This document shows positions 211 to 43,976 of a stretch of DNA of 64,000 nucleotides, piece by piece. The stretch lies in assembly GCA_937888725.1 (NCBI GenBank), contig CALARE010000009.1, forward strand, positions 970 through 64,969, read 5' to 3'. A program made the position numbers and the translations under genes. Below the pieces are notes generated by a model, which was given only the letters and a program-made list of their open reading frames with translations, was not told where the DNA came from and searched no databases. This stretch comes from an uncultured Alphaproteobacteria bacterium. GTDB taxonomy: Bacteria > Pseudomonadota > Alphaproteobacteria > CAAHEQ01 > UBA3637. Every line of letters begins with the position of its first letter. Position 1 is the first letter of the stretch.

Positions 211-1548
211 ATGAATATATCAGATCTTAACGACCTTTTAGAGGCATCACTTGAAACAGGTGATTATTCGAAACTTAAAGCCATTATAAAAAAATATGAG
301 CATAAAAATATTTATTTATATGAACCCGAAAAAAAAGCCCTTGAAATTTATAATTATTTCATCAACTTAAATAAGAAAATTGATTTAATCTTTTTTTCAA
401 GAAAAGACAGATCTGCTTTTATACAGGCTATTCGGTCTGGAAATTTAAAAAAAATTACTTCTTATTTGAAAAAATATGAAGATTTTAAAGTTTTTGAATG
501 GGTGAAAGAAGGATTGATTGAAAAAGTATCAGAAGCATTGAAAAACGGTTTAAATCCAAATAAAAAAACAGACAATAAAGAAAGCCTTTTACAAGTAGCG
601 TCTGCGTTTGGAGAAACAGAAATTGTTGATCTACTCCTTAAAAAAGGAGCAAGAATTAACCCTTCATTTTTTGATAGTGAAAAAGAAAGTCCAGCTTTGC
701 GAGTAGCTGTTTATCATAATCAAACAAAAACAGCCCTTTTTCTTCTTGAACATGGAGCTAAAATTTCAAGCAAGGTTTTGTCAATGGCAATAAAAAACCA
801 AAATGAACCTCTTGTTCAAGGCATTTTAAATGTTTATCAGCAAAAATATGCACATAATGAATATGAAAGTACACTATTTTGGCAAAGCACTCCTGCTTTA
901 ACATATGCAATTGAATCTGGAAATGAAAAGATTGTAAAATTGCTATTAGACGCTGGAGCTAATGTTAACACAGAAGGCTCTACTCTTCCTGTTAAGGAAG
1001 CCTTTTTATCACGAAATAACACCATTATTGATATGGTTTATGAAAAAGCTGATCAATTTCAAAGATCTCAAATGGCATCTATGGCTATACATAATAGATT
1101 GTCATCTATTATGTTTCATCTTTATCAAAAAAAATGCCCTGTATTTTCTGAAGATTTAAATCATTTCACAATTGAAAACATATTAGGCTTTACATTTTTG
1201 AACAATGACAGAGCAACATATGATATGATTATGAAAACATTATCTGATGATGAAAAAGCAAAAATTGATTGGAAAGAGGCAAAATCCCTCGTTAATGATA
1301 ATGGGCATATGCCTGATACTGCAAGGAATTTAATCGTGCGTACTTTTAAAGAAGTGTTTCAAGAAGAACAAAAACAGCAAGAAGCAGAAAGAAAACCCCT
1401 ATATTCAAATCCAACACCTTGTTTTTCTGTATCAGGAAATTCTGAGGCACATACGGATATTTTGCATGCCACTTTCCCTACATTAATTGCTTATCAAAAA
1501 CCGATTTTTCAATTTACTGATAAAGAAAGAGGCACAAGAGAGATATAA
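211..1548 (+). CDS. ankyrin-repeat protein (445 aa)
   Basis: Long ORF with repeated ~33-aa ANK-like units (…TALFLLEHGAKI…, …GNEKIVKLLLDAGANVN…). A hairpin plus T-run follows at 1569-1601. Confidence 0.75.
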   Translation: MNISDLNDLLEASLETGDYSKLKAIIKKYEHKNIYLYEPEKKALEIYNYFINLNKKIDLIFFSRKDRSAFIQAIRSGNLKKITSYLKKYEDFKVFEWVKEGLIEKVSEALKNGLNPNKKTDNKESLLQVASAFGETEIVDLLLKKGARINPSFFDSEKESPALRVAVYHNQTKTALFLLEHGAKISSKVLSMAIKNQNEPLVQGILNVYQQKYAHNEYESTLFWQSTPALTYAIESGNEKIVKLLLDAGANVNTEGSTLPVKEAFLSRNNTIIDMVYEKADQFQRSQMASMAIHNRLSSIMFHLYQKKCPVFSEDLNHFTIENILGFTFLNNDRATYDMIMKTLSDDEKAKIDWKEAKSLVNDNGHMPDTARNLIVRTFKEVFQEEQKQQEAERKPLYSNPTPCFSVSGNSEAHTDILHATFPTLIAYQKPIFQFTDKERGTREI

Positions 1549-1568: not shown

Positions 1569-1601
1569 AAAAGCCTTGCTAAATAAGCAAGGCTTTTTGT
1601 G
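1569..1601 (+). terminator. rho-independent terminator
   Basis: aaaagccttgcttatttagcaaggcttttt stem-loop followed by a T-run. Confidence 0.6.
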
Positions 1602-1668
1602 GTTTATTCATCGGCATGCTGTGTCTTTAATATATTTAAACAAACGCATTTTAATGAATTCTATTTTT

Positions 1669-2181
1669 TTACTCAGTTCTTTCCCCGCGAGATGTATCTT
1701 GCGTTGGTAATTTCTTCTGATCGGTGATTTTTTGAATTTGAGGGGCTGATTGTTGGCTACATTTATTTACTACTGTTGCAGTCAAAAGGATACCGCTTCC
1801 TGCAACAAGAGTGGATAGTACCGAATAAAGTACTAACTTAAATCGTGATAGATTTTTTTCAACCTTTTCAAAAGAATATGTTCGTTTTTCACCTTTATCT
1901 TCAACGGTATAAGTTGATTTATCCCACTCAACGGATTGAACATTTTTTGCCCCCGTCATTTCATCACCTTTGTTGTTATACAACGTCCAATCCCCCACTA
2001 TATTTCGAATAGCAATATATTTCGGTGCTTTTTCATTATATTTATAATCATAACCACCATGATAAGTTATAAACCAGCCATTACGAGCAGCAATAACATA
2101 AAAAGGTATATCATCACCATAAGATTTTACTTTATGATCTGTTCTAAAATATCTATTATTAATAAACTTCTTTTCTGTCAT
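1669..2181 (-). CDS. hypothetical protein with a C-terminal TM helix and conserved ~23-aa tail (QIQKITDQKKLPTQDTSRGERTE)
   Basis: 170-aa ORF. The tail is almost identical to the C-terminus of the adjacent 2196..2939 gene product. Confidence 0.55.
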   Translation of the reverse strand: MTEKKFINNRYFRTDHKVKSYGDDIPFYVIAARNGWFITYHGGYDYKYNEKAPKYIAIRNIVGDWTLYNNKGDEMTGAKNVQSVEWDKSTYTVEDKGEKRTYSFEKVEKNLSRFKLVLYSVLSTLVAGSGILLTATVVNKCSQQSAPQIQKITDQKKLPTQDTSRGERTE

Positions 2182-2195
2182 ATAATGCTTTTTCT

Positions 2196-2939
2196 TTATT
2201 CATCTCTTGCACCACGAGAAGTATCTTGAACTGGCAATTTCTTTTGATCTGTTATTTTTTGAACCTGACCTGGAACAGATACATCATCGCCTTGTATATC
2301 CTCATCTAAGCATGGTTGAATATTGTCCAAAAGTGTTTTGCCATAATTCTCAACGAGTTGAGGTGTAATATCTTGCACACGAACAACTGGTGTTGGAAAT
2401 TTTTGTTCTAAATCCGCATCACTAATGGGGACAAAACTTTCTTCTTTAATGGCTTTTCTGATATGGGCTCTAACAGCTTGACTGTGTTCACTCTTTTGAT
2501 GCATAAATTCAAGCATTCCATTTTTCATAACATCTGAATGTGCCAAATCGATGGGTGTATCTCCCATTTTGTTTTTTCTATCCATAGATGCTCCATTATT
2601 CAATAAAGCAACAACTAAATGTTCTAGGCCTTCTTTTTGAACAGCAATGTGTAATAAAGTGTCCCCGTCCATATCTGCTTTTTGCACATTGCAGGTTTTA
2701 TTTTGGATAGATTTGATAATACAACTTTCTAATTGAGGGGTATGTTCAGAATATTTCATAATTGCAATATATTCTAGTGTTTCATCTGGATCTTTTGATG
2801 TATCACAAACATGGTCCAAATCTTTATCAAAACCTTCTTCCGTATAAAGAGGTAATTCTTCAACTTGAGGCTTAAAAACCAAAACAGCTAAATTTTCAAT
2901 CTTTTTAAAAATCCTTGTTAACAAATTTTCTTTTTCCAT
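2196..2939 (-). CDS. ankyrin-repeat protein carrying the same conserved C-terminal tail (QVQKITDQKKLPVQDTSRGARDE)
   Basis: ANK units (GDTLLHIAVQKEGLEHLVVALLNNGASMD…GDTPIDLAH). Its N-terminus (LLTRIFKKIENLAVLVFKPQ) resembles the C-terminus of the 3155..3805 product. Confidence 0.65.
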   Translation of the reverse strand: MEKENLLTRIFKKIENLAVLVFKPQVEELPLYTEEGFDKDLDHVCDTSKDPDETLEYIAIMKYSEHTPQLESCIIKSIQNKTCNVQKADMDGDTLLHIAVQKEGLEHLVVALLNNGASMDRKNKMGDTPIDLAHSDVMKNGMLEFMHQKSEHSQAVRAHIRKAIKEESFVPISDADLEQKFPTPVVRVQDITPQLVENYGKTLLDNIQPCLDEDIQGDDVSVPGQVQKITDQKKLPVQDTSRGARDE

Positions 2940-3154
2940 TGTTTTTTACCTTTCCCAAATAAGTTTCAATATACTTCAATATACTTAATTTAAAAATGTT
3001 TGTCAAACATTATAAAAATATAAAATTATATTTTTTAAAACAATGAAAAAGGCTAAAAAAGACAAGTTACATCCTATACTTCTATTGTTCTTTTGTTAGA
3101 AAAAACACCCTTTGAAAACAAAGAGTGTTTTTGATATTTTTAAACTTATAGATT

Positions 3155-3805
3155 TTATTGATTTTCTCTTATTTGACGTTTAAAAACCATAAGTGCGAAA
3201 TTTTCAATTTGTTTTAATCCTCTTGTAATAAGGTTTCCACCAACTGATTTGTTCGACTCACTTGTCAATTGTTTATAAAATTTATCTTTTTCACACTTTT
3301 GAGCATGTAAGATAGCTGCTTTTTCTTTTAATTTTTCATATCTAATAGCTTTTTGCTGTCTTTCTTGTTTTGTATCAGGAGCCAAAACTTCAAATGCAAA
3401 TGCTGATAATTCCATATCATTTAAAGAACATAACATTTTAGAATAGACAAAAATTTTATCAGCGATTTGCTTTATTTTCCCTGCTCTACATTCAAGGTAT
3501 AACGGATAAGTTGCATCAATATCTGGCAACTTTCTTAAATCTGAATCAGACTTTTGGTTGTCAAATAAAAAAGCAGCTCTTGCCTTTGTTTGTTTTGTTG
3601 CTGGGAGAAAATATGCAGATGTCAGTTGCTGAACAATTTCTTTTTGTAAACAAAGAGGTCCTTCTTTTTGTTCTTCTAATATAAAATCAACCAATTCGTT
3701 CCGTTTTTTTATAGGAAGCAAACGTAATATTCTTTTCAATTCTTCTAATTCTTGTTTTGTGTTAGATGATAATTCCCTAAAATAAATTTTTGAGCTTTCT
3801 GTCAT
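3155..3805 (-). CDS. hypothetical protein (216 aa) sharing a module with the neighbouring effector-like proteins
   Basis: ORF whose C-terminal segment (NLITRGLKQIENFALMVFKRQ) is similar to the N-terminus of the 2196..2939 product. Confidence 0.5.
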   Translation of the reverse strand: MTESSKIYFRELSSNTKQELEELKRILRLLPIKKRNELVDFILEEQKEGPLCLQKEIVQQLTSAYFLPATKQTKARAAFLFDNQKSDSDLRKLPDIDATYPLYLECRAGKIKQIADKIFVYSKMLCSLNDMELSAFAFEVLAPDTKQERQQKAIRYEKLKEKAAILHAQKCEKDKFYKQLTSESNKSVGGNLITRGLKQIENFALMVFKRQIRENQ

Positions 3806-3937: not shown

Positions 3938-4699
3938 TCAAACTCTGGATTGGTCTTTTAAGAATTTTTGAACTGATTTGACAAGGTTGTGACGGGGTTG
4001 TTTCCCCACAATCTTATCCATATAAGCATAAGGTTGTGCAATCTCTTGAAAAGGGGAAATCGTCCCATTGGACCAAACCCGTTTTAATGATGGAAGATGT
4101 TTTTTTGTCACATAGATACACAAATTGTCAACAATACGTTCCTTTTCTTCTTGATGAATGGGTGGATTTTTCAAGTGGTTGGGATTAATTATCAAATCTT
4201 CAATCCCCAAATGTATCATCTCATGTACGATAATATGAGCCAAAGCAGACTTATCCTCCCATTGATTACCAAATCCAAGGATGATATGGCCAATATTTTG
4301 CTTGTCTCTAAAATACTTACCCCCGACACTAAACGCCACCAAATCAATCTGGTATGCTGGTAAAATTTCAAATCCCCAATGATTCTTTAGTTGTTGTATT
4401 TCATAAAAACAACTTTGTACCATCGGCAATACGGCTTGAACTTTTTGAATAAACGGTAAGTATTGCTCTTTATTATAAAGTTCATTTCGATAAAGAGAAA
4501 AATACTTATTCTTAAAGGTTGAAGAATCCAATCCTCTGTCTTTAATCATCTGATTAATCAAGGGGTTATTTAATTTTTGATAATATTCAAGCCGATTACT
4601 ACGACCATTATTTATATACCAATCTAAATGACAAATGTTTGATTGCAAATGTTTAAAAGCGCTCTCAACATCAGGTACAGGAATTGTAATCGAAAACAT
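3938..4699 (-). CDS. hypothetical protein with an HExxH motif (possible zinc metallopeptidase fold)
   Basis: 253-aa ORF containing IIVHEMIHLG. No other recognisable motif. Confidence 0.4.
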   Translation of the reverse strand: MFSITIPVPDVESAFKHLQSNICHLDWYINNGRSNRLEYYQKLNNPLINQMIKDRGLDSSTFKNKYFSLYRNELYNKEQYLPFIQKVQAVLPMVQSCFYEIQQLKNHWGFEILPAYQIDLVAFSVGGKYFRDKQNIGHIILGFGNQWEDKSALAHIIVHEMIHLGIEDLIINPNHLKNPPIHQEEKERIVDNLCIYVTKKHLPSLKRVWSNGTISPFQEIAQPYAYMDKIVGKQPRHNLVKSVQKFLKDQSRV

Positions 4700-4837: not shown

Positions 4838-4937
4838 TCTCGGCTCAGACTCACGTTGCCCCCGTGAGTCCGCTTCTCTAACCTCTACGCATACAAAAAT
4901 AGCCCTCAAAAGAGGGCTGTTTTTGTATGGTGCCGCT
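4838..4937. repeat. ~100-bp direct repeat, copy 1 (tRNA-Thr 3' end plus terminator hairpin)
   Basis: Near-identical to 5025..5121. It ends in tggtgccgct (the reverse complement of the tRNA 3' AGCGGCACCA) and contains the agccctc/gagggct hairpin. Confidence 0.7.
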
Positions 4938-5024: not shown

Positions 5025-5111
5025 CGGCTCGGCCTCACGTTGCCCCCGTGAGTCCGCTTCTCTAACCTCTACGCATACAAAAATAGCCCTCAAAAGAGGG
5101 CTGTTTTTGTA

Positions 5112-5121
<10 letters not shown>
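5025..5121. repeat. ~100-bp direct repeat, copy 2, contiguous with tRNA-Thr
   Basis: Same sequence as 4838..4937 and overlaps the 3' end of the tRNA. Confidence 0.7.
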
Positions 5122-5186
<65 letters not shown>

Positions 5187-11275: not shown

Positions 11276-12819
11276 TTAGTCACCATTTTGACGAGATGTT
11301 TCTTTTTTAAGAGAAACTCCTTGATTAGAAAGGATTGTTCTTTCATTTTGATGAATAAGTCTGGCAATTTCAACACCTAAATCCACATCATATCCATCTC
11401 GTGAATTTTGAATAACAAAAAAGGCAACGTCCATTGCATTTATTCCTTTTTCACTTATAACAGTTGCTCCTTTATCCAACAACAATTGAACCATCTCTTT
11501 ATTGAGCATATAGACAGCACTTGTCAAAGGCGTATCGCCACTTTCATTAACGTAATTTACATCAGCCCCTTTTTCAATCAATAATTTTGCAAAATTGGTT
11601 TGCCCTTCCATAATAGCAACTTGCAATGCTGAATAATGTGGCTCCTCTAAAATTTTTGCATTCACGCTTGCCCCTTTTTCAATCAATTCTTCAGCATGCT
11701 TTATGTTTTTTGTTCTAATTAAGTTAATCAATTCAGCATTTAGATGCGGTTTTATATCAACATCTTTAAATTGACCCTCATTTTCCAAAAAAGATTCAAT
11801 TTGCTTATGTCCATTTTTTCGAGCAATGTAAAGTGCACTATCAACACTATACGCATCTAACCAATCAACCAAAATTTCTGTTAAAGATTGGTTGCCGTTT
11901 TCAGCGGCATAATACAATGCATTATTGTTCAATTTATCAACAATTTTCCTTTCAGCACCCACCTCTAACAAATGTTTAACCAAATGTTCATGCCCATTTT
12001 TTGTTGCCACAATTAACGGTGTTTGACCGTCTTTATCCATCACATTTGGGTCAATTTTTTTATCCAGCAAAAAATCGACCCCTTCTTGCCAACCCATTTG
12101 AGAAGCCAAAACAAGAGCGGGTGTTCCATTTTTATCAAATGCCATTGGGTGAACACCTTTTTTAATTTGTTCTGCCATAAGATTTAAATTCTTCTCTCTC
12201 ACAGCTGATGTAAACGTTTGATATTCTGTCTGCATTTGTTTTAAAAAGTCGACAAGTTCCCTATTTTGAGTTTTTGTAGCACACTCAATAACATCATAAT
12301 GATGCACCTCACACCCAAAATAAGTTAAGACAGGGTTACCATGAATCACATGGAAAATATTTGCCCCTTGATTTAAAAGGGACTTTACCGCATCAATATC
12401 TCCTTCTTCAGCCAGATGACAAAGATCATAATCAAGATGAGATTGTGAATAACAATCCCATATCGGTTGCGGTGAAATGGCACCCCCAATTTTTATCAAA
12501 TTTTCAACCTTTTGAATCTGTTTTTTAATCCCTTTCACATGGCAAGCTTCGCAAGTAGACAAGCAACGGTTTAAAATATCTAAACAGGTATGGCCAGCAT
12601 TATCTTTTATCATAACACTTGCCCCATAACGCACCAACATATCAAATGCAAGAAAATACCCATTTTCAAGAGCAAGCATGACAGCTGTTTTACCCTCTTT
12701 ATTTTGCACATTTTTATCAGCCCCTAGATTGAGAGCATAGGCTACAAAGTTTGGGTCACCTCTTGAAACAGCATTTAACAAAAGTTGATTGTTTTCTTCT
12801 TGACTTCTTTGGTCCATGA
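11276..12819 (-). CDS. ankyrin-repeat protein (~514 aa)
   Basis: More than ten ANK units. The start was set at MDQRSQ (ATG 12817-12819), preceded by AAGGAGG. The ORF-track N-terminal extension to 13186 is judged spurious. Confidence 0.7.
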
Positions 12820-12977
12820 TATCCTCCTTACTCACCAAAAAAATATTAACTATACTAAGGCATATTTTGATACAAAAATCAAGAAAAATATCCTTTTTAA
12901 CCAATATTATTTTTTTGTTTACTTTTTTTAAAAAATATTGTATAATAAAATCGTATTCATTTATTATGGAGGGTACC

Positions 12978-13883
12978 ATGACAATAAATACAACGAATAC
13001 ACATATACTTAAACCACTTCCCAAAAGAAAAGAGCATTTTTTTGGCAGATGGATAAAAAGGGCATGGAATTTTATCCCAAGTGTAAAGGCTGTCACAAAA
13101 GGTGTTAAATATGTGTTTAAAAAATTTGTTACCCAAACAAAAAAAGGGATAAATACCAATGAGATAAAACAACTCGTCAAAAGCATTTTTAAAACATTAA
13201 CAGCTTTTGCCTCTTATCCTATTAAATCCGTTCAAAAAACAGCTAATCATTGTCCATTGGATGAAAAGCCTATGATCATTAAAATTGAATCAAATGCTTC
13301 ACAAAATAGACATTTTCATGGTGGTGCCTATTATGATGGGATTGCTGTGGACAGCGATGGACGAGGCAATAATGGTACACCTGATGGCAAGATGGAAGCC
13401 CCTGTTGATACAAAAGCGACTTATTTTATTCTCTATCCTTCAAAATTAGGGTTAGATACAAAAAAATTAAAACAAGCTTTTCAAATTGAATCACAAAAAC
13501 AAGGCGATTATGATTTTTACATTAATAATTGCATTAATCATGTTATCCGACCGCTCCAACAAGCGGGTGCCAAAATTGATTTTGGTGAAATTGCAACACC
13601 CAAAGAATTGTGTATTTGGTGCGATAGCGTTTGTCTAAATGGGGCTGGTTTTTGCTTAAATGAGACAGAATATCAAAAGCTTTTAACACAGCTTGAAGCA
13701 AAAGAACATAATAAACAAATCATTGAAAAACTTTATGCCTTTTCAAAATTAAAAGCTGAAATGAAACAAGTAAAACCTTATGCTATGGCTCAGATTGAAA
13801 TCCCACAAGCAAAAACACACATTCATAAACAAGGGATTAAAATTCGACCCTATCAAAGAAAAGAACATGCTCTTTGTGCATAA
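12978..13883 (+). CDS. hypothetical protein
   Basis: ORF preceded by GGAGGG. The start is trimmed from the ORF-track value. No recognisable domains. Confidence 0.5.
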   Translation: MTINTTNTHILKPLPKRKEHFFGRWIKRAWNFIPSVKAVTKGVKYVFKKFVTQTKKGINTNEIKQLVKSIFKTLTAFASYPIKSVQKTANHCPLDEKPMIIKIESNASQNRHFHGGAYYDGIAVDSDGRGNNGTPDGKMEAPVDTKATYFILYPSKLGLDTKKLKQAFQIESQKQGDYDFYINNCINHVIRPLQQAGAKIDFGEIATPKELCIWCDSVCLNGAGFCLNETEYQKLLTQLEAKEHNKQIIEKLYAFSKLKAEMKQVKPYAMAQIEIPQAKTHIHKQGIKIRPYQRKEHALCA

Positions 13884-14668: not shown

Positions 14669-15637
14669 TCAAACTTGATTAATTGATTTTTCAACACCTT
14701 TTTTGAGGGTATTCATACATTTAGTAATCATTTTATTGAGCTTTGTTTCTTGCAAATCAATCCGTTGTTCTTTTGAAAAAAGGGCATATCCTGCGCTTGT
14801 AAAAACAGCTGGTTTGATTTGGCCTTCTTTCATCCAATAGCGAATGGTTGAAACAGGTACCTTGCAAATTTCAGCAAACTTTGAAATGGTGAGTAGTTCA
14901 TCTTTTTCTGCAATTTCAACAGGATTATTTAACATCATTTGAAAAGAACGCTTTAAGGCTTGATTCATAAACATATGGTATGTATCAATCCGCCCCTTTG
15001 ATTGATAAATTTCCAATACCTCAAAAAACCGTTTTTTATCAATCGTCCTTAACAATAATGGGCAATAGCCATTTTTAAGCAGTAAAACACTTAATAAAAT
15101 AAATGCGACATAAAAATTCCCCCGCTTAAACGGAGCTATTGTTAAAAATTTGTTATAAATTTCAAATATATTGGCAAGAGCGTTCGTATCTTTTTTTTGT
15201 ATAAGTAAATCAAGTGCTTTCATCTCAGCCATAATTGCAGAGGGAATAATCGTTTTTAATTTCAAATTTGGATATTGCTCTCTTGATTTACGATATTGCC
15301 CTGCCTCTCCTTCAATTCTATCAAAAATCATTTGATGTATTTTTTTCATAAAAAAGGAATCAATAACCACTTTTTTATAATTTTCAAAAACAAAATCAAG
15401 CGTTTCATTCAGTTGAAATAATAATAAATAATCATGAAAGGATTTGCCACCTGCCGTTTCATTTTGATGAATAAAAAGTTCAATTTCTTGACGTGAAAAA
15501 GACCCCTCCTCCACCATATTTAGCATACAAGAAAGTTCCGTTTTAATGTACAATTTTAAGCGGTTAAACGCTTTTTTATCTTTTAAAATAATACTCAACG
15601 ACAAACGTTCTTTATTAAATTTATGATTATAATTCAA
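14669..15637 (-). CDS. Fic/Doc-like fold protein with a degenerate Fic motif (APFKRGNFY in place of HPFxDGNGR) fused to a C-terminal MerR-type HTH
   Basis: The C-terminal ISKFAEICKVPVSTIRYWMKEG…GYALFSKEQRIDL matches the MerR N-domain signature. The central motif lines up with the Fic core but lacks the catalytic His. Confidence 0.5.
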   Translation of the reverse strand: MNYNHKFNKERLSLSIILKDKKAFNRLKLYIKTELSCMLNMVEEGSFSRQEIELFIHQNETAGGKSFHDYLLLFQLNETLDFVFENYKKVVIDSFFMKKIHQMIFDRIEGEAGQYRKSREQYPNLKLKTIIPSAIMAEMKALDLLIQKKDTNALANIFEIYNKFLTIAPFKRGNFYVAFILLSVLLLKNGYCPLLLRTIDKKRFFEVLEIYQSKGRIDTYHMFMNQALKRSFQMMLNNPVEIAEKDELLTISKFAEICKVPVSTIRYWMKEGQIKPAVFTSAGYALFSKEQRIDLQETKLNKMITKCMNTLKKGVEKSINQV

Positions 15638-15912: not shown

Positions 15913-18900
15913 TTAGAAACCGAAAGTGACACCACTTCTAAACGTTGTTGAGCCATTGCCACCATAAGCAGCACCCGCATTCAACAAAATATTGTCGTTC
16001 ACATGGTGGAATGCACCAACGGCAAACCCTGTCGTCCCACGATAGTACCCCGTACCCAATGATAATTGCGTATCACCAGCTGAGCGTGCATTGGGGACTA
16101 ATGCTGATAAGGCAGCTAAACTTGCAAAACCAGATCTCATTTCATGATCCATTTTGTTCATTTCATCTTCAACACGGCTTAAATTGCTATCTAACGAACT
16201 GACCGCACTGGACAAATCACTCCCTGATTTGATGTAATTTGTACTCGTATAAGCACGGTTACCAATGGCGGCATCAATCCTATCTAAATTGGCAACAACA
16301 GATGAACCTTGAGCTAAATTGTTATTTCTATTTTGCATTTGACTCATATCACCAATTGTGGCGTTGATTGCATCAATATTAGCATTTATGGAATTTGAAG
16401 CTAATACCCCATTGTAATTGGTCGTTGTTGCAGAACCAATATTTCCAGCAACTTGATTGATTGCCCCTGTTACAGAGGTATCACTCCAACTAGATGGCTC
16501 ATAATTGGTTGAGGTAGCAATGCTATATTGACGATTGCCAATCGCGGTATCAAGACTGTCTAAGTTTGCATTTATCGAATTATTCGCATCAATGTTACCA
16601 TTTGCCCCAGTTACAGCATCACCAATATTTGCATTAACCGTTTGAATGGCATCGCTTAAAGAGGCTTGATCTGGCATTGCATAGTTAACTGCCCCACCAG
16701 AATATGTTAAATCACCAATAGCTGTATCCAAACTTGTAATAGCGGTTGTTAAATCTGTGGCTGTGGAGGCGTTATTCGTTGCGGAAAAATCAGCCGTACC
16801 AATGGCATCACCCGCCGCTTTTAACCCTGAGGCAACATCCGTTGCTGTCCCAGCGTTAATAGCTGTATTAGTGCTTGTTATTGTGCGATCACCAATCGCT
16901 GTATCCAAGGCAGTTAAGTGTGATTGAACCGTTTTATCCGCTCCTTGATCAAGGTTTGAACCTGTCAATTCTTTAACATTACCGATTGTGGCATCTAACG
17001 CATTCAAGGATGAAGTCACATCAGCCCCAGCGGTGAGGTTTTTATTCCCTTCATTTAAAGTACCTGTACCAAGAGCCCCTTGCAGTGTTGAATCTTGACC
17101 GTTCCATTGAACATCCACTTTTGCAGAATCCACTTCCCCAGCATCATTTAAAACATTATTCAAAGCTTCCGTCGTTGTCGACACCGCCTCTTTTAATGTT
17201 GCTGGTGTTGTTGCCGCCGTTTTAACAGTTTCACCCGTATAATCGGCGTTTTCAGCATTTACTTTGATTTGAGAATCCGTTTTTGTGGCGGTATAAACAG
17301 TATCAGTTGAAGCATCCGTATCCGTGATTGTAATGGTGCCAGCCGTTGAATCAATTGTAACAAGATTGTCTAGATTTGTCATCGTTTGATTAAGAGCTGT
17401 GTTTGTTTCAGCCAAAGCACCCCCTAAAGTGTCCGCAGAACCACCCGTCACTTTTGTACCTGTGTATGTTCCATTTTCAGCCTGACCAATCACCGTGTTA
17501 TAAACGGTTGCATTCGTTGCAAGTGTTGATGTCCCAGTCGCATCAGTCAAATTTGAACCTGTATCAATGCCATCAACAGTTGTTCCACTTAAAACAAGAG
17601 AACCCCCTTCGATAGAACCTGCACCAACACTCAATGAGGTCCCTGTAATGTCACCAGCCGTGATTGTATTTAAAGTGGCATTCCCTTTTTTTGTGATGCC
17701 ATATGAACCATCTCCAACGGTTAATCCGCTTTCAAATGAGGCATTTCCCACAACGGTTAAATCCTTTCCCGCAACAATAGAACCATCTGTCCCAATGGTT
17801 GTTTTTGTCACCGTGCCAAATGTTGTTTCGCCCGTAAAGGTATTATCACCTGTAAATGTGCTATCTGATTGAACCAATGCATTGATTGCATTTGAGATAT
17901 TTGTATCGGTTTGAGCAGCTGTATAAGCCGTTGTTTCATCATTACCCTCAGCCGTTCTAAATTTAATTGTACCATTTGTTTCTGATACAAGGTTGTTCAA
18001 AGCAGCTGTTGTTTGAGTGATTGTATTGTTTAAATTTGTTTGTAATGCCGAGATGTTAGCCGTATTTGTGTTAATATTTTGTGCATTATTAGCAATGGCA
18101 TTTGTATTTGTCGCAATATTGGCTTTATTGTCAGAGATAGCACTCGCATTTTGATTAATCGCTGTTGCATTATTCGCAATTGCAGTCGCATTATCACCGA
18201 TTTTAGCCGTATTAGAAGCTATATTTTGGGCATTTTCAGAAATATCACTTGTATTTTTGGCAATGGCATCTGCATTTTCTGAGATATCTTCTGTATTTGC
18301 CTCAATCTTTGCCGTATTGGCAGAGATTGCCGTGGCATTTTTGCCAATATTAGTCGTGTTTGTTGTAATATTCCCAGTATTTGTTGTAATATTAGCCGTA
18401 TTTGCCGCAATATTGGCTTTATTGTCAGAGATAGCACTCGCATTTTGATTAATCGCATCTGCATTATTCGCAATTGCAGTCGCATTATCCCCGATTTTAG
18501 CCGTATTAGAAGCAATATCAGCTATATTTTTGTCAATGGCTGTTTCATTTTTTTCGATATCAGCGGTGTTTGCCTCAATAGCTGTTGTATTAGAAGCAAT
18601 ATCAGCTATATTTTTGTCAATGGCCGTTTCATTTTTTGCGATATCAGCGATGTTTGTTGCAATATTTGCCGTATTTGTTGCAACTTGAGCCACAGTGTCG
18701 GCTGTTACACCCGAATCAACTGCCGCTAGCTGGTCAGTCGTTAAACTTGCTTGTTTACCATCTAACGCTGTATTAATGTCTGAAATGGCTGCTTCAGTAT
18801 TGTCTACACGCGTATCTAATTTATCAAACGAGGTACCCAAATCGGTAACCATGTTTATACTTGCTTTTCCTTGAACAGCGGTATTAATTGCTTCTTTAAC

Positions 18901-19143
18901 CGCAGATTCAGTCAAAATATTTGCACTTGACGAATTAGCCCCATCAACAATTGTATATTCTGTACCTGTGCCTGTTGCACCACCAGAACCCATCACATTT
19001 CCATCTGTTTCAGGAATTGTAATTGTTGCCGCACCTGCTGAAGTGGAAATTGCCACCCCAGAGCCAACCAATGTGGCGATAATAACTGCCCGAAAGCGGG
19101 CTTTTAACTCTCTAATAGCGGTTTTTGATAACTTTAACGTCAT
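15913..19143 (-). CDS. trimeric autotransporter adhesin (YadA-like), 1076 aa
   Basis: Extended signal peptide, a long repetitive stalk (NTANIATNIADIAKNETAIDKN…), and a C-terminal YadA-type membrane anchor ending …GVTFGF. Confidence 0.85.
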   Translation of the reverse strand: MTLKLSKTAIRELKARFRAVIIATLVGSGVAISTSAGAATITIPETDGNVMGSGGATGTGTEYTIVDGANSSSANILTESAVKEAINTAVQGKASINMVTDLGTSFDKLDTRVDNTEAAISDINTALDGKQASLTTDQLAAVDSGVTADTVAQVATNTANIATNIADIAKNETAIDKNIADIASNTTAIEANTADIEKNETAIDKNIADIASNTAKIGDNATAIANNADAINQNASAISDNKANIAANTANITTNTGNITTNTTNIGKNATAISANTAKIEANTEDISENADAIAKNTSDISENAQNIASNTAKIGDNATAIANNATAINQNASAISDNKANIATNTNAIANNAQNINTNTANISALQTNLNNTITQTTAALNNLVSETNGTIKFRTAEGNDETTAYTAAQTDTNISNAINALVQSDSTFTGDNTFTGETTFGTVTKTTIGTDGSIVAGKDLTVVGNASFESGLTVGDGSYGITKKGNATLNTITAGDITGTSLSVGAGSIEGGSLVLSGTTVDGIDTGSNLTDATGTSTLATNATVYNTVIGQAENGTYTGTKVTGGSADTLGGALAETNTALNQTMTNLDNLVTIDSTAGTITITDTDASTDTVYTATKTDSQIKVNAENADYTGETVKTAATTPATLKEAVSTTTEALNNVLNDAGEVDSAKVDVQWNGQDSTLQGALGTGTLNEGNKNLTAGADVTSSLNALDATIGNVKELTGSNLDQGADKTVQSHLTALDTAIGDRTITSTNTAINAGTATDVASGLKAAGDAIGTADFSATNNASTATDLTTAITSLDTAIGDLTYSGGAVNYAMPDQASLSDAIQTVNANIGDAVTGANGNIDANNSINANLDSLDTAIGNRQYSIATSTNYEPSSWSDTSVTGAINQVAGNIGSATTTNYNGVLASNSINANIDAINATIGDMSQMQNRNNNLAQGSSVVANLDRIDAAIGNRAYTSTNYIKSGSDLSSAVSSLDSNLSRVEDEMNKMDHEMRSGFASLAALSALVPNARSAGDTQLSLGTGYYRGTTGFAVGAFHHVNDNILLNAGAAYGGNGSTTFRSGVTFGF
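18113..18671. repeat. in-frame DNA repeats within the adhesin stalk (110-bp copies 294 bp apart, plus a tandem 84-bp pair)
   Basis: 18113-18223 is nearly identical to 18407-18517. 18504-18587 is nearly identical to 18588-18671. Confidence 0.7.
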
Positions 19144-28239: not shown

Positions 28240-31200
28240 TTAATTCTTAGTGTAAAAAATTCTAGTTGGATAATTATCTCCTATTATGCTAGGTAATTCA
28301 ATGCTAATTTTTTGAACTTGAAAATCAACACTAGATTCAAATGGGAATAAATTTTCATAGTAATTGTACGCAGCACATCTCCAATATAAAAATCCTTGAT
28401 CGAAAATTAGATTTATAACATCCCCATTTTCTAGCTCAATAATTAAAATTCTATTGTGTTCTAGATATTTTTTATTTCTTTCTTGAATATTAAATTTTAG
28501 ATCAATGCTTGCAAACAATTTATTTAAAACAGCCTTGCGTTCAGATGATCTAGGCCATTCATCGTAAAATTTACCAGGTGTATATTTTATATTATCTTCA
28601 TTTTCACATGTTAATAAATTAATTTCAGTACACTTCCAATTATTTGCATATTTATTTTTTATTGCCTTTATAAAATTAAAGAATAAACCACAAGAAAGAG
28701 GATTTTTGATATAACGATCTTTGTACGTTATTTTTACTATATTGGATGAAATTCCGTTATTTAAACTCTCAGATAAAATATTTAACAAGCTTTGACCAAA
28801 TAAATTTCCGGAACAGTTTACTTCAGAGGAAATATTATACATTTTATCAAAGCTTGTTTTGATATCGCTGTTTAATGCTACATCGTAAAATTCTTTTTTA
28901 TCAATATCAATATATCCTGAAAGAATTGAAGTATTAACATTACTTCCCCAATATGGATTTAATTTTTTTACATCTTGATCTAAAGAAGCATAAGCATAAA
29001 AACCGGTACCGTTATTTATAACAGCCATTATATTCTTATTCAAATTATCTGGAATTGACTTTATTGAAACATTTTTATACTTAGAAAGCAATCCTAGAGT
29101 TTCTTTTACATCGTCACTGATTTTTGTCGCATCAACACATAAAATTGTATCAATTCCCATGGAATTATATCTATTTACTAATCTATATAATGGTGAGTTT
29201 AAAAAATCTTCATCATCATCTTGTTGGGGTACCAACAAATACAATTCCTTAATACTTAGAGTATCTTCAATTAAACTTTCGATACTGGCCGAAGCGATAA
29301 CTGTGGTATCGCCAAAAATTTTCATATTGTCGGCTAAAGTATTTTTTGAAATCCATTCATCTGTTAAAAAGTCTAAAGCTAATAACCTATCTAGGTGTTT
29401 ATAGTTGTATTTAGTATCATTTTGTAAAATACATTTATTACATGATTGAGCACAGTCACAAGTTAATGTATCTTTGGCATACTTAAATATGCGACTTAGA
29501 TTTTTGATAATATCATCAGATGAACAATAACCTGATGCATTTTTATCAAACAATTCTATTGAAAATCCTTTTTTATTTGATCCAACAAGTTTTATTTCTT
29601 TTGTTCCACAGCCAATTTCGTCAGTTTCGATATTCATATATTTGGCTATACCACTGCGAATTGCTACTGCCAATGAATATGCGAGAGTTTTATCGTTAAC
29701 AATTTCTCCGTTAATATCTGATAAAATAAGTTCCAAAACATCAGTTTTGACTTCAACTCCTAGAGAAATATTTTCCACTATTGAATATGGAGAATGATTA
29801 CATTCTACTTTCATATTTCTCATGTTGGGATTAAAACTATTTGCACTTCTTAAACGATAATGTGATTTTCTAAACTCAACTCTGTTCTTTTCATTGTTTG
29901 CAACAACTCTGCCACACTCTAAACAAAGTATGTAGCCGTCACCACCGCCATTTGAGTAATGAATGACACTTCCTTCTTTATCATTTTTATATTTTATGTA
30001 AGGTAAACCCAAATAATTATTTAAATCATTGTGAGCAGTAACTAGTGGTTCACATAAATTTACAAAATGTTGAACAGATACGTTATTATTAACGGGAGCA
30101 TTAAAATCAACAGAAAAACCTGCTGGCTGTATATACTTGTGAATATTATGTCTATCGATTTCTTCACCACATACATCACAGTGAATATCTAGTAATCTTG
30201 TTGATGTACCACTTGCACCACATTTATTACAACGCCAAAAATAACGAATTGACTGAATTTCTTTAACCTCTGTTTCTGAGGCAGGAATATGCCAATTTAG
30301 TGTAATACCTGCAGATTTATATACAAGACCATCAATAACAACATCGCTACCGGGAGCGTACTCTCTTAATGCTGTGCAAATATCTCTTGAAGGCAATTCT
30401 CTTCTTTTAAATAAATTGTCTTCTCTTTCTCCATAATTCTTTTGCATTCTATAGTCTTGATTTTCGATGCTATATCGATTGTTTGTATCAAAAGTTACGA
30501 TATTTATTGGAAAACCATATCGTGGTAAAATTCCATATCCTATCATTTCTTTTAATAGGTATTCATGCAGTAAGCGTGTCTCAGTATTTTTAATAGCGAT
30601 TAAACTAATTTTATGATCTTTTTCTCTCTTTTTTTGCTCTTGAATTGCATCATATTCAGCAAACCACTTCTTTTGCATATTTTCAATTTGCAGGCTCAAT
30701 TCTGAGACAAACACATCAAAACTAATATGTTCATAATGTGTATTTTTGATTAAAGAATGAATAGCCGCCTGAACTCGATTATTTGTTCTGATAGCATCTT
30801 TGCAGAAACGTTTAAATTTGGAAAGCTTATTATCTTTAAAAGGTAACATAAGCCATTCCATATTAAGTTTGGTCGCATCACTAATTTGGCCTTTAATTGA
30901 TTCAAAAAAGTAGGATAACAATAAAGAATTTATATGTCTCAATAATACAATAAAGCTGTATTGATCTACGTAAGGAGCATTTATTTTTGATGTAAATGCC
31001 CATTTGGGATGATTAAAAACATATTGGTCATGAGAGTTGTCTTTACATAAAGTAAAGCTTATCGCCTTTGTTTCTCTACGTCTTCCTGCACGTCCTGCAC
31101 GTTGTAAATAATTGGCCGGATGTGGCGGAACATTATTCATAGATGCAATCGTTATACCACCGATATCAACACCCATTTCCATTGTGGTTGAACAGTTAAG

Positions 31201-34200
31201 AACATTTATAGCTCCACTTTTAAATTCATCTTCATATCTTTTTAATAGTCGATGAGATTGTTGAGCCGAGTGTTCCGCTGTTCTGAAATATCTATTTCCA
31301 AGGATAATTGAGCTTGCAACGTTGCTCCATAACCCAAGTTTTTTTAAATTTTGTACATCTTCGTTGCTTTCAAGCCAATCTCTTCTTAATGAAATACATT
31401 CTTCATAAGATTTTCCTAGTTCATTTTTAAAATCATAAATTGGATAATTATATTTATTACACTTAGGGGTCGTTTTGCTTGAAGAATAAGGAGAATACCC
31501 TTTAAGTACAACATCTAAAGCCTTATTTGTCATAGGACAAATATAAATTTCTTTAGGTCTAGTTAAACCGATTTTATTTACATCTAATTTATATGTTTTT
31601 GCCGTTGACGGTGTTAAAATTCCAGTGGTAATTGTTAAAGCATCCCAAGCTTCTTTCATAATTTGATTTAAAATATCTAAATGAAGATCATTATCTATAC
31701 TTAAATCAAGAGCATATGACAATAAATTTATTATATTTTTATTTTTTTTCTTTTTTGCTACAGGCCAGTTTTCCTGATCTAAAGCTCTGTTTGTTCTTTG
31801 AAGAGCTCCCCATTTATTCCAGTTTTCAGGATAAGCAACATATCCATTGGCACGAATATAAAAATCTATTAGTATTTTAAGAAAGTCTTTCCATTCATTT
31901 AATTCAAAAAATCTATGTATAGTATCTGGTACTTTCGTGATTTTGCTAAAATCATAAACTGTTGATAACAATCCTAATGTTTCAACATTATTCGCTTTTT
32001 TCGGTCTTCGTAATAGTTCTCTAGCAAACAATATTTCTATTAAATTACGACGTCCTTTATCTGCATCAAAAATGGAATCTTTATCTCGATAATAATTATA
32101 TATCCATCTTAAATCATTGTCGTTAAATTCTTTTATTATTTGATTTAAGACCTCGTCTTCTTTTGCAAAAGAATCGTGTTTTTGTTCCAATTCTTTAATT
32201 GCATTTAATAAAGCAGGAAGTTTTGTCGTTTCATATAGTTTTTTTAATGCTGCAATATCAGTACTTCCTGATGGTTTTGTTTTTTCTTGTTCTAATAATG
32301 AAACAACGTGTAATAAGATACTTCTGAAACTGTTTCTTTCGGAGTTTTGTTGTAGTTGAACAGCTAACCTAGCAGTTCCCTGTCGGCTATCTGTAAAACA
32401 TATCATTTTCTGTCCTTTATGAGGATTTTCATCCAATTTTTCTCCTGCTTCAGCATAATTTAATAATGTCGGTAAAGCATGACTTAAAACAAATGGTGCA
32501 CCTTGCATAGGAAGAAATGATTTGATTTGGTCAATTTCAGGAGTATCACAACAATGGACATATTCATCATCTTCAAAAACATTTATCTTAATTCCATTTT
32601 CACAATTGCTAGACAATGAATTATCTGCAGTATTCAAATAAACAGAAGAATTATCATCTACATTGTAAATATATGCTGTGTGAGTTTCCAGTTCTACAAT
32701 ATTATTTTCTTCGTCTTCCAATGAAAACTCATCAACATTTTGCAACATCGTAGGATATAAGTATTTAGTGCCTGATTTTTTATCTTCACTGATTTTTGCT
32801 TCTAAGAAAGGTGTTCCACAATTTGAACAGGCTTTTACTCTGAAAACAGGAGCACCACATTCACAAGAGCATTGTTCTTTTAAGTAAATTTTTCCGTATT
32901 TCCACCCATCTATGTTGTCTTTATGCGTACATTTATCATTGCAGCAGGCCCATATACCAGGAAACGTCTTATGGAATAAATGCAAACGAAGTGGCAAAAA
33001 CGCCTTTTCTTTATTAGGAGTAACGGATAATAAATCAAGCCATTCTGCTGCTTCTTCCTTTGAAATTTTAAAAGTCTTACATATTTCTGATAAGGTTCTA
33101 GCAACAGAACGTGTCCCATCTTCAGAAATAAAGAATGATCGTAATTGGCAAGCAAATTTATTGTTTTTTAATTCTTTAATAAGTACATCAGGATCCGTTA
33201 TAATTTGCAGCTCAGATAATGATTTTGTTTGATTATCTGCTGTAATCGTTGGAATTTCATTATGTCCAAAAACAACTTCAATATTTTCTTCATTAACACC
33301 TGAAATACTTGATAAAAATTGTTTTAATTGCTGTTCTGCGTTTATGCTTCCGATAGTAGCAGATGTTGCGATAAACTTAACATCTTGAGCATTTACATCA
33401 AATGCATCTAAAACTCTCTTCAGAAGTAATGACAACTCTGCAGCTTGTGAACCAATATATGTATGAGCTTCGTCTAGAATAATGTATTTTAACATTCCCT
33501 TAGATTTATCAATAATTTGCTTATCATTTGCTCTAATAAGCATGTACTCTAACATCGTAGTATTGGTAATCAATAATGGTGCAGGAGATAAGCGAAGTCC
33601 CTGTCTATCGGTTATTTCTTCCAAGGATTTTTTTTGTTCGTGATTTGGATTTTCAGTAGGTAATAATCCATTATAAAGACAGAAACGAATTTTACCTTCG
33701 TAAGGTTTAGTCCATTCGCTAAAACGTTCTTTTTGGTTCTGAATTAATGCATTAAGAGGATATATAAATAAAGCCTGGACACCTTCTAAAACGTTTGAGC
33801 TACCTTTAGATTGTCTTACCAAATCAGATATGATGGGTATCATAAAGCATTCTGTTTTTCCTGAACCTGTACCACTTGAAACAACCAATGAATTATTTGT
33901 ATTTAATAATGTTTTCCAAGATGTTATTTGGTGTTCATAAGGGTGCATTGTTTTAGAAAATCTATATTCTGTAGATTTATTTAATACATTAACAAAAGAA
34001 CGTTCGAGCAGTTTTCCGGACAACTCTTCAAAAGAATTGCTATCTGTTTTATAACTAAACATTGGTTCAAACACAGGGTCAGAAAGGAATTTTTCATCTT
34101 CCAGTGAAAACTTATCTCTTAAAAACTCACGCAAATTTTGTGGCAATATGGATAAAGTGCTCATAATGGCATCTTTTGATTGCTCTGGTAATATTTTTAA

Positions 34201-34227: not shown

Positions 34228-34228
34228 G

Positions 34229-37720: not shown

Positions 37721-37877
37721 ATAGGCACCTTTAATGAATACAATATTGTATTTCATAGCATATTTTTTTTAATTATTCAACAAACTTCATTATTAGAAGT
37801 GCCAAAAAATGACGTTTGTTCATATGTTTTTTTGCAAAAATAGTTAAGGTATCTACTTTAAGGAACTTTAATATTTT

Positions 37878-37899
37878 CTACAACTTACGCACATGGTGT
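37878..37899. repeat. 22-bp direct repeat, second copy, in the divergent promoter region
   Basis: See 28172..28193. Confidence 0.6.
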
Positions 37900-38020
37900 T
37901 TGGGGTATATAAAGAGATTTTCATTTTTTTTGAAAAAAATGACTATTTTCTTGCAATTTTAGGTATAAGTCGTTAAAATGTGACGGATTATAATTTTATG
38001 CTGATAAATGAGGTGTTTTC

Positions 38021-40069: not shown

Positions 40070-40079
40070 AGGTGTTGGG

Positions 40080-40802: not shown

Positions 40803-40829
40803 TCAGTTTATTGCCAAGTGAGGATATTA

Positions 40830-43973: not shown

Positions 43974-43976
43974 ACA

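Follow-up and report, generated by a model that had tools for sequence, protein, structure and literature searches.

Three open reading frames, ORF A, ORF B and ORF C, lie on the minus strand of the window (the whole stretch of DNA that was analysed, 64,000 nucleotides), and all three are present at the positions given in Table 1. No Pfam family was found in ORF A. In its AF2 model, nine strands have pLDDT values of 55-82 and the helix and tail fall below 40; the helix is seen in the Kyte-Doolittle profile as a 19-residue maximum of 1.88 (residues 116-134 of A) that stops 15 residues short of the tail motif. The homologues of ORF A (P0020, P0022-24 and P0081) all terminate in the tail. ORF B is an ankyrin-repeat protein, as the initial annotation had it: Pfam Ank is matched at E=6e-6, with PF00023 at 26.7 bits (cut-off 21.1) and PF13637 at 23.7 (cut-off 22.7), and the AF2 model is confident in the ankyrin core alone (residues 91-196), where the helical repeats reach pLDDT 70-90. 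The N-terminal module of ORF B, which has a hydrophobic moment of 0.58, is conserved throughout the B family. Its resemblance to the C-terminus of ORF C, noticed earlier, is significant (residues 5-28 of B against 191-214 of C, 14/24 identical, E=1e-6). ORF C shares 48% identity with P0085 over its residues 9-178 (E=1e-53), and the C-termini of P0084, P0085 and P0086 consist of a helix plus the tail.

Table 1. Features in and around ORFs A, B and C (positions in the window)
Feature	Position	Strand	Description
ORF A	1669..2181	-	170 aa; orphan body rich in beta structure, followed by one hydrophobic helix, a linker and the tail
A hydrophobic segment, putative tail-anchor helix	1768..1836	-	residues 116-138, LVLYSVLSTLVAGSGILLTATVV
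A tail-coding segment	1669..1740	-	23 codons plus stop, QIQKITDQKKLPTQDTSRGERTE
ORF B	2196..2939	-	247 aa; from the N-terminus: amphipathic module, acidic linker, ankyrin core, a further acidic segment (LDEDIQGDDVSVPG), tail
B tail-coding segment	2196..2267	-	23 codons plus stop, QVQKITDQKKLPVQDTSRGARDE
B N-terminal module, amphipathic helix	2865..2927	-	residues 5-25, NLLTRIFKKIENLAVLVFKPQ; matches the C-terminus of C
ORF C	3155..3805	-	216 aa; body homologous to helix-plus-tail proteins, yet B-type module at its end
C C-terminal module	3173..3235	-	residues 191-211, NLITRGLKQIENFALMVFKRQ
X130 remnant	1608..1649	-	13 codons, MRLFKYIKDTACR then stop; from the conserved 130-aa gene X130
Bidirectional hairpin terminator	1569..1597	.	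12-pair stem then T run, both strands
Promoter-like site upstream of B	2978..3006	-	TTGACA-17-TATATT, 11/12, match to consensus alone
Last 38 residues of the 445-aa ankyrin protein (211..1548, +)	1426..1539	+	second shared C-terminal module, ends ...DKERGTREI

ORFs B and A, 14 nt apart, look like one operon, and the hairpin downstream of them is predicted to close both this operon and the convergent gene for a 445-aa ankyrin protein. Between the hairpin and ORF A lies the remnant of X130, a gene that follows tail genes in relatives and of which full copies exist in related loci (L005, L009, L011, L013, L014, L022 and L025). A likeness by eye between X130 and the B-type N-terminal module was dropped, since the module HMM gives X130 only 2.9 bits. 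The C-terminus of the 445-aa ankyrin protein was likewise rejected as a further copy of the tail: it has no score with the tail HMM, and its last 38 residues represent a second module held in common with a relative, P0002, whose post-tail extension they match at 15/38 (E=2e-5).

A C-terminal peptide on unrelated bodies

The tails of A (QIQKITDQKKLPTQDTSRGERTE) and B (QVQKITDQKKLPVQDTSRGARDE) have the same residue at 19 of their 23 positions. BLASTP of A against B finds similarity only in the C-terminal ~25 residues (21/27, E=3e-10); as the tail alone is aligned, the two bodies are unrelated, and the initial annotation was right on both counts. The tail HMM scores A at 58 (E=1e-16) and B at 60.5. 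The consensus, Q-x-QKITDQ-x6-DTSRGAR-x-E followed by the stop codon, is bipartite, with six variable residues between the halves. The next-to-last residue is limited to T, S, E or D and the last is Glu or Asn; five K/R against three or four D/E give a net charge of +1 to +2, and two of the Arg are conserved. The peptide is hydrophilic and disordered, residues 197-247 of B being modelled by AF2 at pLDDT of about 30 and with no secondary structure. The shared part thus amounts to 23 residues, or up to about 60 when an optional acidic and helical insert is counted.

A and B carry the only two copies of the tail in the 64-kb window. Taking all copies together, at least eight mutually unrelated small-protein bodies end in it, with an identity across these bodies of about 85-100% over the 23 residues; in every case the tail occupies the 3' end of the ORF, in the same frame and at a fixed distance to the stop codon. 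A scan of 185,579 species genomes with a strict tail pattern, by which both the number of genomes and the copy number in each are defined, located the tail in about 8 related gut alphaproteobacterial MAGs only (GCA_017466695.1, JAFYRI01, JAGCKR01, JAZTVX01 and CALCTR01 among them), at several copies per genome and up to five per MAG. An exhaustive profile search of 1.84 billion (1.84e9) representative proteins yielded only 15 true tail clusters. The earlier view of the tail as a module conserved on otherwise different proteins thus holds well beyond A and B. The lineage in question consists of animal-gut Alphaproteobacteria without a cultured member or known biology, and a literature search on RF32 and Rs-D84 gut Alphaproteobacteria retrieved nothing on secretion or ankyrin proteins.

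The tail has no Pfam relative, and a PDB profile search gave no match below E=0.3; among the tail-bearing bodies, only the ankyrin one belongs to a Pfam family. A known domain or structure was therefore rejected. A phage or plasmid origin was rejected as well, since tblastn against phages returned two matches at E=8, the level of chance, and neither the pattern search of IMG/VR nor the search of plasmids returned any.

In six body families, a late and moderately hydrophobic helix precedes the tail. These helices have Kyte-Doolittle values of 1.5-2.05 and are rich in Gly, Ser and Thr. Among ten helix-bearing proteins that were measured, nine have 14-19 residues between the end of the helix and the tail motif, while P0021 has 27; the spacing seen in A recurs in proteins of five other families, and most of the helices stop some 36-38 residues short of the stop codon. 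The soluble bodies, namely those of B (ankyrin), fam5 and fam7, have an acidic linker in place of the helix.

Exchange of cassettes and selection on the peptide

Related loci differ in ways that bear on how the shared segments are used. A syntenic relative, L014, has no gene A, and its gene B switches from the sequence of window B to that of window A inside the tail. In L017-L019, the terminal segment of C continues in frame into the B body. Gene A itself occupies three different positions in different genomes. The crossover within the tail and the fusion of C to B indicate that the repeats drive the gain, loss and fusion of cassettes: as far as these junctions show, the coding DNA of the tail and that of the amphipathic module of B and C have acted as homology tracts for cassette insertion, deletion and fusion. 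By the same comparison of genes and genomes, A, B and C are shown to be members of one family of modular cassette genes, with orphan bodies, that is specific to this lineage. The module swapping proposed in the initial annotation is thereby upheld in so far as the family recombines through shared modules; for the N-terminal module, swapping holds in the B and C families only. The locus provides a clean natural example of coding repeats that serve as crossover points for the gain, loss and fusion of cassettes.

The tail DNAs of A and B are about 80% identical, and the differences between them are mostly synonymous, which argues against a recent duplication. Chance was rejected on the BLASTP E-values and on the excess of synonymous differences, and so was a recent local duplication, the outcome that would have emptied the initial proposal; copies exist outside this locus, and the peptide is under selection. 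The latter point follows from where the tail DNA varies, chiefly at the third position of codons: over the 23 tail codons, nucleotide diversity adds up to 3.4, 2.3 and 7.8 at codon positions 1, 2 and 3, respectively, and the invariant Gly of the tail is encoded by all four of its codons. Judged by this pattern, purifying selection is shown to keep the tail at the level of the peptide.

The segment might nonetheless matter purely as DNA, as a recombination or mobility repeat akin to the integron attC site or to the Rickettsia palindromic element, with the peptide as a passenger. Such a role would account for breakpoints that fall within the tail and within the B/C module, for an order of cassettes that varies among genomes and for the integrases found near one locus (L020). 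In-frame DNA repeats of these two kinds are however palindromic and conserved in nucleotide sequence whatever the frame, and the tail is neither: it shows no palindrome or stable fold (consensus fold -2.8 kcal/mol), it keeps one frame and the 3' end of the ORF every time, and it has zero copies in intergenic DNA, phages and plasmids. The concentration of variation at codon position 3 largely refutes a role as DNA only, which I regard as the least probable of the explanations considered here. An element acting at the RNA level, or a palindromic DNA element, was rejected on similar grounds, there being no RNA structure in the tail DNA and only tRNAs among the Rfam matches.

Possible functions of the tail

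No signal peptide was found at the start of the tail-bearing bodies, and soluble proteins and proteins whose sole hydrophobic helix is a late one both end in the tail, so the bacterial cytoplasm is the sole compartment common to all tails. This makes a recognition tag that is read there the most likely function, and the tail is most likely a shared address or recognition tag. A possible course of events is that the tail, as the protein leaves the ribosome or shortly afterwards, is recognised in the cytoplasm by one common partner, most probably a substrate receptor or adaptor that serves a one-step pathway of export or translocation. This pathway would deliver an effector-like set of proteins, and those with a helix would become tail-anchored in the target membrane. 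A type IV secretion system (T4SS) of the VirB/VirD4 type, T4SS being the example given in the initial annotation, is the leading candidate because its signals are C-terminal, hydrophilic and basic. On the strength of sequence features, I favour such a cytoplasmically read export tag tentatively, at somewhat below an even chance. The surroundings are those of eukaryote interaction: besides a Fic protein, a YadA-type protein and autotransporters there are three ankyrin proteins, and related loci contribute LRR, MORN and polysialyltransferase genes. The window also holds restriction and defence genes and many envelope glycosyltransferases, for which reason the organism need not be intracellular. 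Neither the 64-kb window nor about 30 related loci contain secretion-system genes (T4SS, T1SS, T3SS or T6SS).

In type IVA systems, VirD4 reads a positively charged signal at the C-terminus of the substrate; transmembrane segments occur in about a third of T4SS effectors, and those effectors that are moderately hydrophobic or tail-anchored escape SRP and rely on a cytoplasmic C-terminal signal (PMC12981334). The signals of Agrobacterium VirF and VirE2 and the tails of Bartonella Beps form a hydrophilic, unstructured end of the protein that contains Arg and is net basic, and VirB/VirD4 substrates are unrelated proteins, ankyrin and transmembrane effectors included, that the coupling protein reads in the cytoplasm (PMC12981334). 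The tail has the hydrophilic, unstructured extreme C-terminus of this class. VirB/VirD4 signals are however defined by charge and degenerate, whereas the tail is a fixed, bipartite peptide of 23 residues that is weakly basic and ends in Glu. It does not resemble Dot/Icm (T4BSS) signals (PMC12981334): its last 20 residues, KITDQKKLPVQDTSRGARTE, include no ExxE and the last three are polar. Tail-anchored and transmembrane effectors of T4SS and T3SS (Krampen 2018, PMC6110835; Malmsheimer 2024, PMC11602083) have, as here, a single helix of moderate hydrophobicity near the C-terminus, and the short polar stretch behind it has to remain accessible in the cytoplasm; in those effectors this stretch is not conserved from one to another, and here it is nearly identical. 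Against an export tag of the kind favoured here speak also the weakly positive charge of the tail with its acidic final residue, and the presence of a eukaryote-like domain in only one of the eight bodies.

Conserved C-terminal features of other kinds offer partial parallels. The Bartonella BID and Xanthomonas XVIPCD modules are reported to mark the whole substrate set of one system and to allow it to be listed in silico (PMC6509941, PMC8740702). These are folded modules of about 100-140 residues, in contrast to a disordered peptide of 23 residues without a Pfam or PDB relative. The CTD of type IX secretion is a beta-sandwich of about 70-100 residues from Bacteroidota; the tail, which is short, disordered and alphaproteobacterial, has no Pfam CTD match. 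Sortase, exosortase and rhombosortase signals (LPXTG, PEP-CTERM, GlyGly-CTERM) also combine a C-terminal signature with a hydrophobic helix on many proteins per genome, but the order is reversed, helix then motif in the present case, the signal peptide is missing and three families have no helix. Encapsulin cargo peptides and dockerin-type tags are, like the tail, short conserved C-terminal peptides that follow a flexible linker on unrelated proteins and bind one receptor. They share no sequence similarity with it, however, and no shell or scaffold gene lies nearby; six of the eight bodies have a membrane helix, and proteins with such a helix are implausible as encapsulin cargo.

Instead of being read during export, the tail could act at the destination, as a docking or targeting motif. 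It would then be a short linear motif bound by a single partner common to all, which might be a host protein or a scaffold of the bacterial envelope. Strict bipartite conservation around a variable six-residue spacer is typical of a peptide that fits a groove, tail and membrane helix are 14-19 residues apart in nine of ten helix-bearing proteins, and a penultimate T, S, E or D would suit a phospho-dependent or acidic contact; the recurrence of X130 and DUF6626 genes beside tail genes also goes in this direction. If the helix proteins insert N-in into the bacterial membrane, however, their tails are periplasmic while those of the ankyrin, fam5 and fam7 proteins are cytoplasmic, and a single bacterial partner could not reach both. 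A host partner would in turn need prior export, and an encapsulin or scaffold gene was seen in no locus. I consider docking of this sort rather unlikely.

Two further roles would be played out inside the cell. As a C-terminal degron or quality-control tag, the tail would be seen by a protease or adaptor (ClpXP, Lon, FtsH or a tail-specific protease) that keeps protein levels low. Its terminal, exposed and disordered state on non-essential, fast-evolving cassette proteins agrees with this, as does a gene for an S41 C-terminal processing peptidase in the window (62284..63321), although that gene is 60 kb away and housekeeping-like. Known bacterial C-terminal degrons are short and have non-polar ends, in contrast to 23 polar residues ending in Glu or Asn, and there is no obvious reason why eight unrelated families should bear an identical degron of this length, all of which makes it improbable. 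The tail might also be a nascent-chain peptide that pauses in the exit tunnel at the stop codon, as do TnaC, SecM and XBP1u, either holding the ribosome during targeting of the helix or coupling translation to the next cassette 12-17 nt downstream. Peptides of this type (MifM among them) likewise measure about 20-25 residues, are conserved in amino acid sequence and keep a fixed distance from the site of stalling or termination; XBP1u and MifM also have a hydrophobic segment upstream, as do the helix-bearing tail proteins. The tail has about the tunnel-proximal length, the helix ends some 36-38 residues before the stop, roughly the length of the tunnel, and behind many tail genes there is a gap of 12-17 nt to an RBS and a further gene. 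The helix is absent from three families, however, several tail genes run directly into a terminator, and the gene that comes next differs from case to case. Each TnaC-type peptide sits on a single protein, a dedicated leader or monitor that precedes the one gene it regulates; the tail is borne by eight bodies, with a downstream gene that varies or is absent. Arrest peptides are moreover unusual on large folded proteins, and neither a Pro-rich nor another known arrest motif is present, so that pausing seems very improbable.

To return to a cytoplasmically read export tag, known T4SS, T1SS and T3SS signals are degenerate in sequence, and none of them is known to approach the identity of about 85-100% over 23 residues found in the tail. 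Conservation of this kind sets the tail apart from known secretion signals and would fit a specific peptide-protein interaction of any kind. The tail could be an address label, defined by its sequence and read by a dedicated receptor, for a route of export or sorting that has yet to be described; the products of X130 and of the DUF6626 gene are candidates for the receptor. This version seems to me rather doubtful. If it were true, the full set of substrates, soluble and tail-anchored, could be read from any genome of the clade. One-step secretion and sorting signals are notoriously degenerate, and effector repertoires are for that reason usually found by experiment; a conserved terminal peptide offers instead a 23-residue bait and a search pattern with which both substrates and reader could be found. 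X130, a clade-restricted gene of 130 aa, and a DUF6626 gene are the ones that recur beside tail genes.

A conserved C-terminal peptide on unrelated bodies

ORFs A, B and C lie on the minus strand exactly where the initial annotation had placed them, and its proposal that A and B share a C-terminal tail on unrelated bodies was borne out by BLASTP: the last 27 residues align with 21 identities (E=3e-10), and no alignment was obtained outside them. The ankyrin repeats of B exceed the Pfam cut-offs, and no Pfam family matched A or C. The reported resemblance between the N-terminus of B and the C-terminus of C was also recovered (residues 5-28 against 191-214, 14/24, E=1e-6). The swapping of terminal modules is thus real, but it is limited to the B and C families, since an HMM of this amphipathic module is significant in B N-termini and C C-termini only. 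In a six-frame search of the window (33% G+C), the only tail copies are those of A and B. Recent local duplication does not explain this pair: the two tail DNAs are ~80% identical, and 8 of their 12 differing codons are synonymous. Promoter-like sites precede C and B.

Coordinates of features in the window and in related loci
Feature	Position	Strand	Description
ORF A	window 1669..2181	minus	170 aa
ORF B	window 2196..2939	minus	247 aa
ORF C	window 3155..3805	minus	216 aa
Bidirectional terminator	window 1569..1597	both	closes B-A
X130 remnant	window 1608..1649	minus	13 codons only
X130 copies	L005 955..1347; L009 5638..6030; L011 513..911; L013 1334..1726; L014 10279..10677; L022 4484..4876; L025 10001..10393
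DUF6626 (PF20331)	L014 10758..11180; L016 992..1414; L024 703..1107; L001		134-140 aa
Second C-terminal module	window 1426..1539	plus	end of 445-aa ankyrin gene (211..1548)
Direct repeat, ~95 nt	window 4840..4937 and 5028..5122		adjoins tRNA-Thr (5112..5186, minus)
253-aa ORF	window 3938..4699	minus	HExxH motif (HEMIH), no Pfam family
636-aa protein	window 11276..13186	minus	many ankyrin repeats; host-interaction-type
Fic-domain protein	window 14669..15637	minus	with MerR HTH; host-interaction-type
YadA-anchor trimeric autotransporter	window 15913..19143	minus	1076 aa, then OmpA-family gene; host-interaction-type
Large defence island	window 28240..46541
Mobile-looking island	L020 1..13000		contains fam5 tail gene
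Giant orphan proteins	L027 1..9784; L025 862..7254		flank tail genes
74-aa helix protein	L025 9759..9983		between ankyrin gene and X130

A degenerate DNA pattern for QKITDQ-x-K-x4-D-[TS]-[TS] was searched in 185,579 species, one genome each. Thirteen stretches matched, 12 of them true tail copies, distributed among eight MAGs that are all labelled 'Alphaproteobacteria bacterium'. The hindguts of water buffalo, roe deer and yak are the source of some of them; the others belong to further MAG sets, for which the record titles state no source. Five copies reside in a single MAG, RGIG7351. One gammaproteobacterium match was rejected as chance. The same pattern found four further contigs in JGI metagenomes and none in IMG/VR. 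When a tail profile was run exhaustively with HMMER over 1.84 billion representative proteins, 16 of them scored at E<=0.001: 15 true tail proteins and one protein with KITDQ repeats. The tail is therefore restricted to one narrow clade. A protein search with B returned its own family and unrelated proteins matching in the tail only. The source genome carries A, B and, I infer, probably an 86-aa tail protein, P0047, whose recorded contig measures 73,314 nt, just as the one with the ValRS of the window does. In the syntenic contig L014, a homologue is found past the 445-aa ankyrin gene, at a distance of ~4.7 kb.

Eight body families carry the tail: ankyrin family B, family A, fam3 (150 aa) with its 137-aa relative fam6, fam4 (138 aa), fam5 (262-280 aa), fam7 (86-109 aa), the 86-aa protein P0051, and the ORF C family. 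In the last, P0084, P0085 and P0086 have bodies homologous to that of C (48% identity, E=1e-53) and end in a hydrophobic helix plus tail, where C itself ends in the B-type module instead. Apart from the ankyrin one, no body matched a Pfam family, and inspection of the sequences revealed no N-terminal signal peptide. In six families, one helix of moderate hydrophobicity (Kyte-Doolittle 1.5-2.05), rich in Gly, Ser and Thr, is joined to the tail motif by a K/N/D-rich linker with Pro at its end; this linker measures 14-19 residues in 9 of 10 helix-bearing proteins measured and 27 in P0021. B, fam5 and fam7 are devoid of the helix, and an acidic LDEDIQGDDVxVPG segment, in some cases accompanied by an insert of 24 residues, ITEHIHRVQTIIDESKKLLHPTVPE, precedes their tail. 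In AF2 models of A and B, the tail region has a pLDDT of ~30 and no secondary structure.

Selection on the tail and exchange of cassettes

In a set of 20 distinct tail DNAs, the blocks QKITDQ and D-T-S-R-G-A-R show practically no variation, and the six intervening residues vary. Part of this invariance is due to the search pattern, which fixes codons 3-8, 10 and 15-17; the Gly, the Ala and both Arg lay outside the pattern. Nucleotide diversity, summed over the tail, amounts to 3.4 for first, 2.3 for second and 7.8 for third codon positions; all four codons are in use for the invariant Gly, and three for Arg-18. Diversity peaks at position 3, a consensus RNA structure is absent (fold -2.8 kcal/mol), and no relative was found in the PDB, phages or plasmids; it is therefore the peptide that is conserved, rather than the DNA or RNA. 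A variant tail in fam7 (...ATKITSQSRSIKKDTSRGAREN) indicates a core made up of KIT-x-Q and DTSRGAR. The next-to-last position, 22, is Thr in 11 tails, Glu in 6, Ser in 2 and Asp in 1; it is thus always phosphorylatable or acidic, a hint of a contact that depends on charge or phosphorylation.

L014 (220 kb) has C, a B ~90% identical to that of the window, and the 445-aa ankyrin gene, and lacks A. Its B ends with an A-type tail (...LPTQDTSRGERTE) followed by exactly the 3' flank of window A, namely the 13-codon remnant of X130, a conserved 130-aa gene, and the hairpin terminator. Because in a three-way alignment L014 tracks window B to the second tail codon and window A from there, the A cassette was gained or lost through a crossover within the tail repeats. 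Family A follows B in the window and fam3 in L002, and adjoins ValRS in L004, L021, L027 and L028. Three independent metagenome contigs (L017-L019) have only the last ~30 codons of C, joined in frame at the IEN-x-A module to the body of B; the B family is itself a mosaic of alternative blocks. Tail genes form same-strand arrays with RBS-containing spacers of 12-17 nt, and X130 and DUF6626 genes often come after them.

Possible functions of the tail

The tail is a robust, lineage-defining feature that provides an experimental handle; its anatomy, selection and recombination are observed, and its mechanism I infer. Where present, the helix would be handled only after translation, because it lies ~36-38 residues from the stop codon. 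If the helix proteins entered the bacterial membrane N-in, their tails would be periplasmic and those of the soluble proteins (ankyrin, fam5 and fam7) cytoplasmic, so the cytoplasm, before insertion or export, would be the sole place containing all tails. There the tail could be recognised as an exposed terminal peptide. A tag for export or translocation is the best explanation, to be held tentatively. The tail-bearing set is diverse and fast-evolving and includes an ankyrin protein, and other eukaryote-interaction domains are plentiful in the genome. Among T4SS substrates, VirD4 reads the T4ASS signals, which are positively charged and sit at the C-terminus; TM segments occur in about a third of the effectors, and moderately hydrophobic or tail-anchored ones avoid SRP and need a cytoplasmic C-terminal signal (PMC12981334). 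The export reading fits these properties. Against the export reading, tail charge is weakly basic; no secretion-system genes were seen in the 64-kb window or the fetched related loci.

The strongest point against export is the degree of conservation of the tail, which has no known precedent among such secretion signals and would be just as compatible with any other specific pairing of a peptide with a receptor. Among the rivals, a docking motif active at the destination is rather unlikely; a degron is improbable. Still less credence is given to a nascent-chain pausing peptide, and least of all to a repeat serving recombination as DNA only: crossovers do fall in the tail, but conservation acts on the peptide. 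As an export tag, the tail would in its possible mode of action be closest to VirB/VirD4 C-terminal signals. It would share with BID and XVIPCD the idea that one conserved C-terminal module marks all substrates; those are folded domains, and the tail is not. The tail also lacks an E-block, and the order of its elements is wrong for sortase-type signals. No profile matched it. The tail is a shared C-terminal tag outside every named family compared, and its motif and seven of the eight bodies are unannotated orphans.

Neighbouring genes

X130 (130-132 aa, MRLFKYIEDTFCAIFRPK...NKKRKRTRQRD) lies ~12-17 nt after tail genes in seven or more related loci. The gene product has a strongly basic C-terminus resembling a nuclear localisation signal. 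X130 has no Pfam family and occurs in this clade only (24 clusters, 69-95% identical). A DUF6626 protein recurs immediately downstream of tail genes or X130. Both are candidate partners of the tail.

The last 38 residues of the 445-aa ankyrin protein, convergent with B-A, are NSEAHTDILHATFPTLIAYQKPIFQFTDKERGTR. They are homologous to a 38-residue post-tail extension in the B-family protein P0002 (15/38, E=2e-5) and form a second exchangeable C-terminal module, whose end, -D-x-x-R-G-x-R-, echoes the DTSRGAR of the tail. The 74-aa helix protein of L025 ends in ...KTIKISRWETVPGVKSIKHVYSRSE, which may be a strongly diverged tail.

The ~95-nt repeat bordering the C-B-A region takes in the tRNA-Thr 3' end and a hairpin, AGCCCTCAAAAGAGGGCT, with ~90 G+C-rich nt between copies. 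It looks like an integration or duplication scar at the tRNA; it has no Rfam match, and similar sequence is present in L004. The HEMIH ORF directly upstream of C is not conserved beside the cassette array: in L014 its place is taken by an unrelated MORN-repeat protein.

The defence island of the window encodes a 1995-aa DEAD/ResIII helicase protein, a 1175-aa orphan, an N6/N4 DNA methylase, a type III restriction enzyme (ResIII plus endonuclease domain) and an SNF2 helicase. The L020 island, from one relative, contains two tyrosine recombinases, a shufflon-like type I R-M S-subunit gene set, DUF6876, ankyrin and LRR proteins and an ART-PolyVal ADP-ribosyltransferase. Of the giant orphans, one has >3,200 residues within the fetched part of its locus (4,699 in total according to the gene table) and the other 2,130 with an M48 peptidase domain. 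In L025, a polysialyltransferase-containing capsule cluster adjoins X130.
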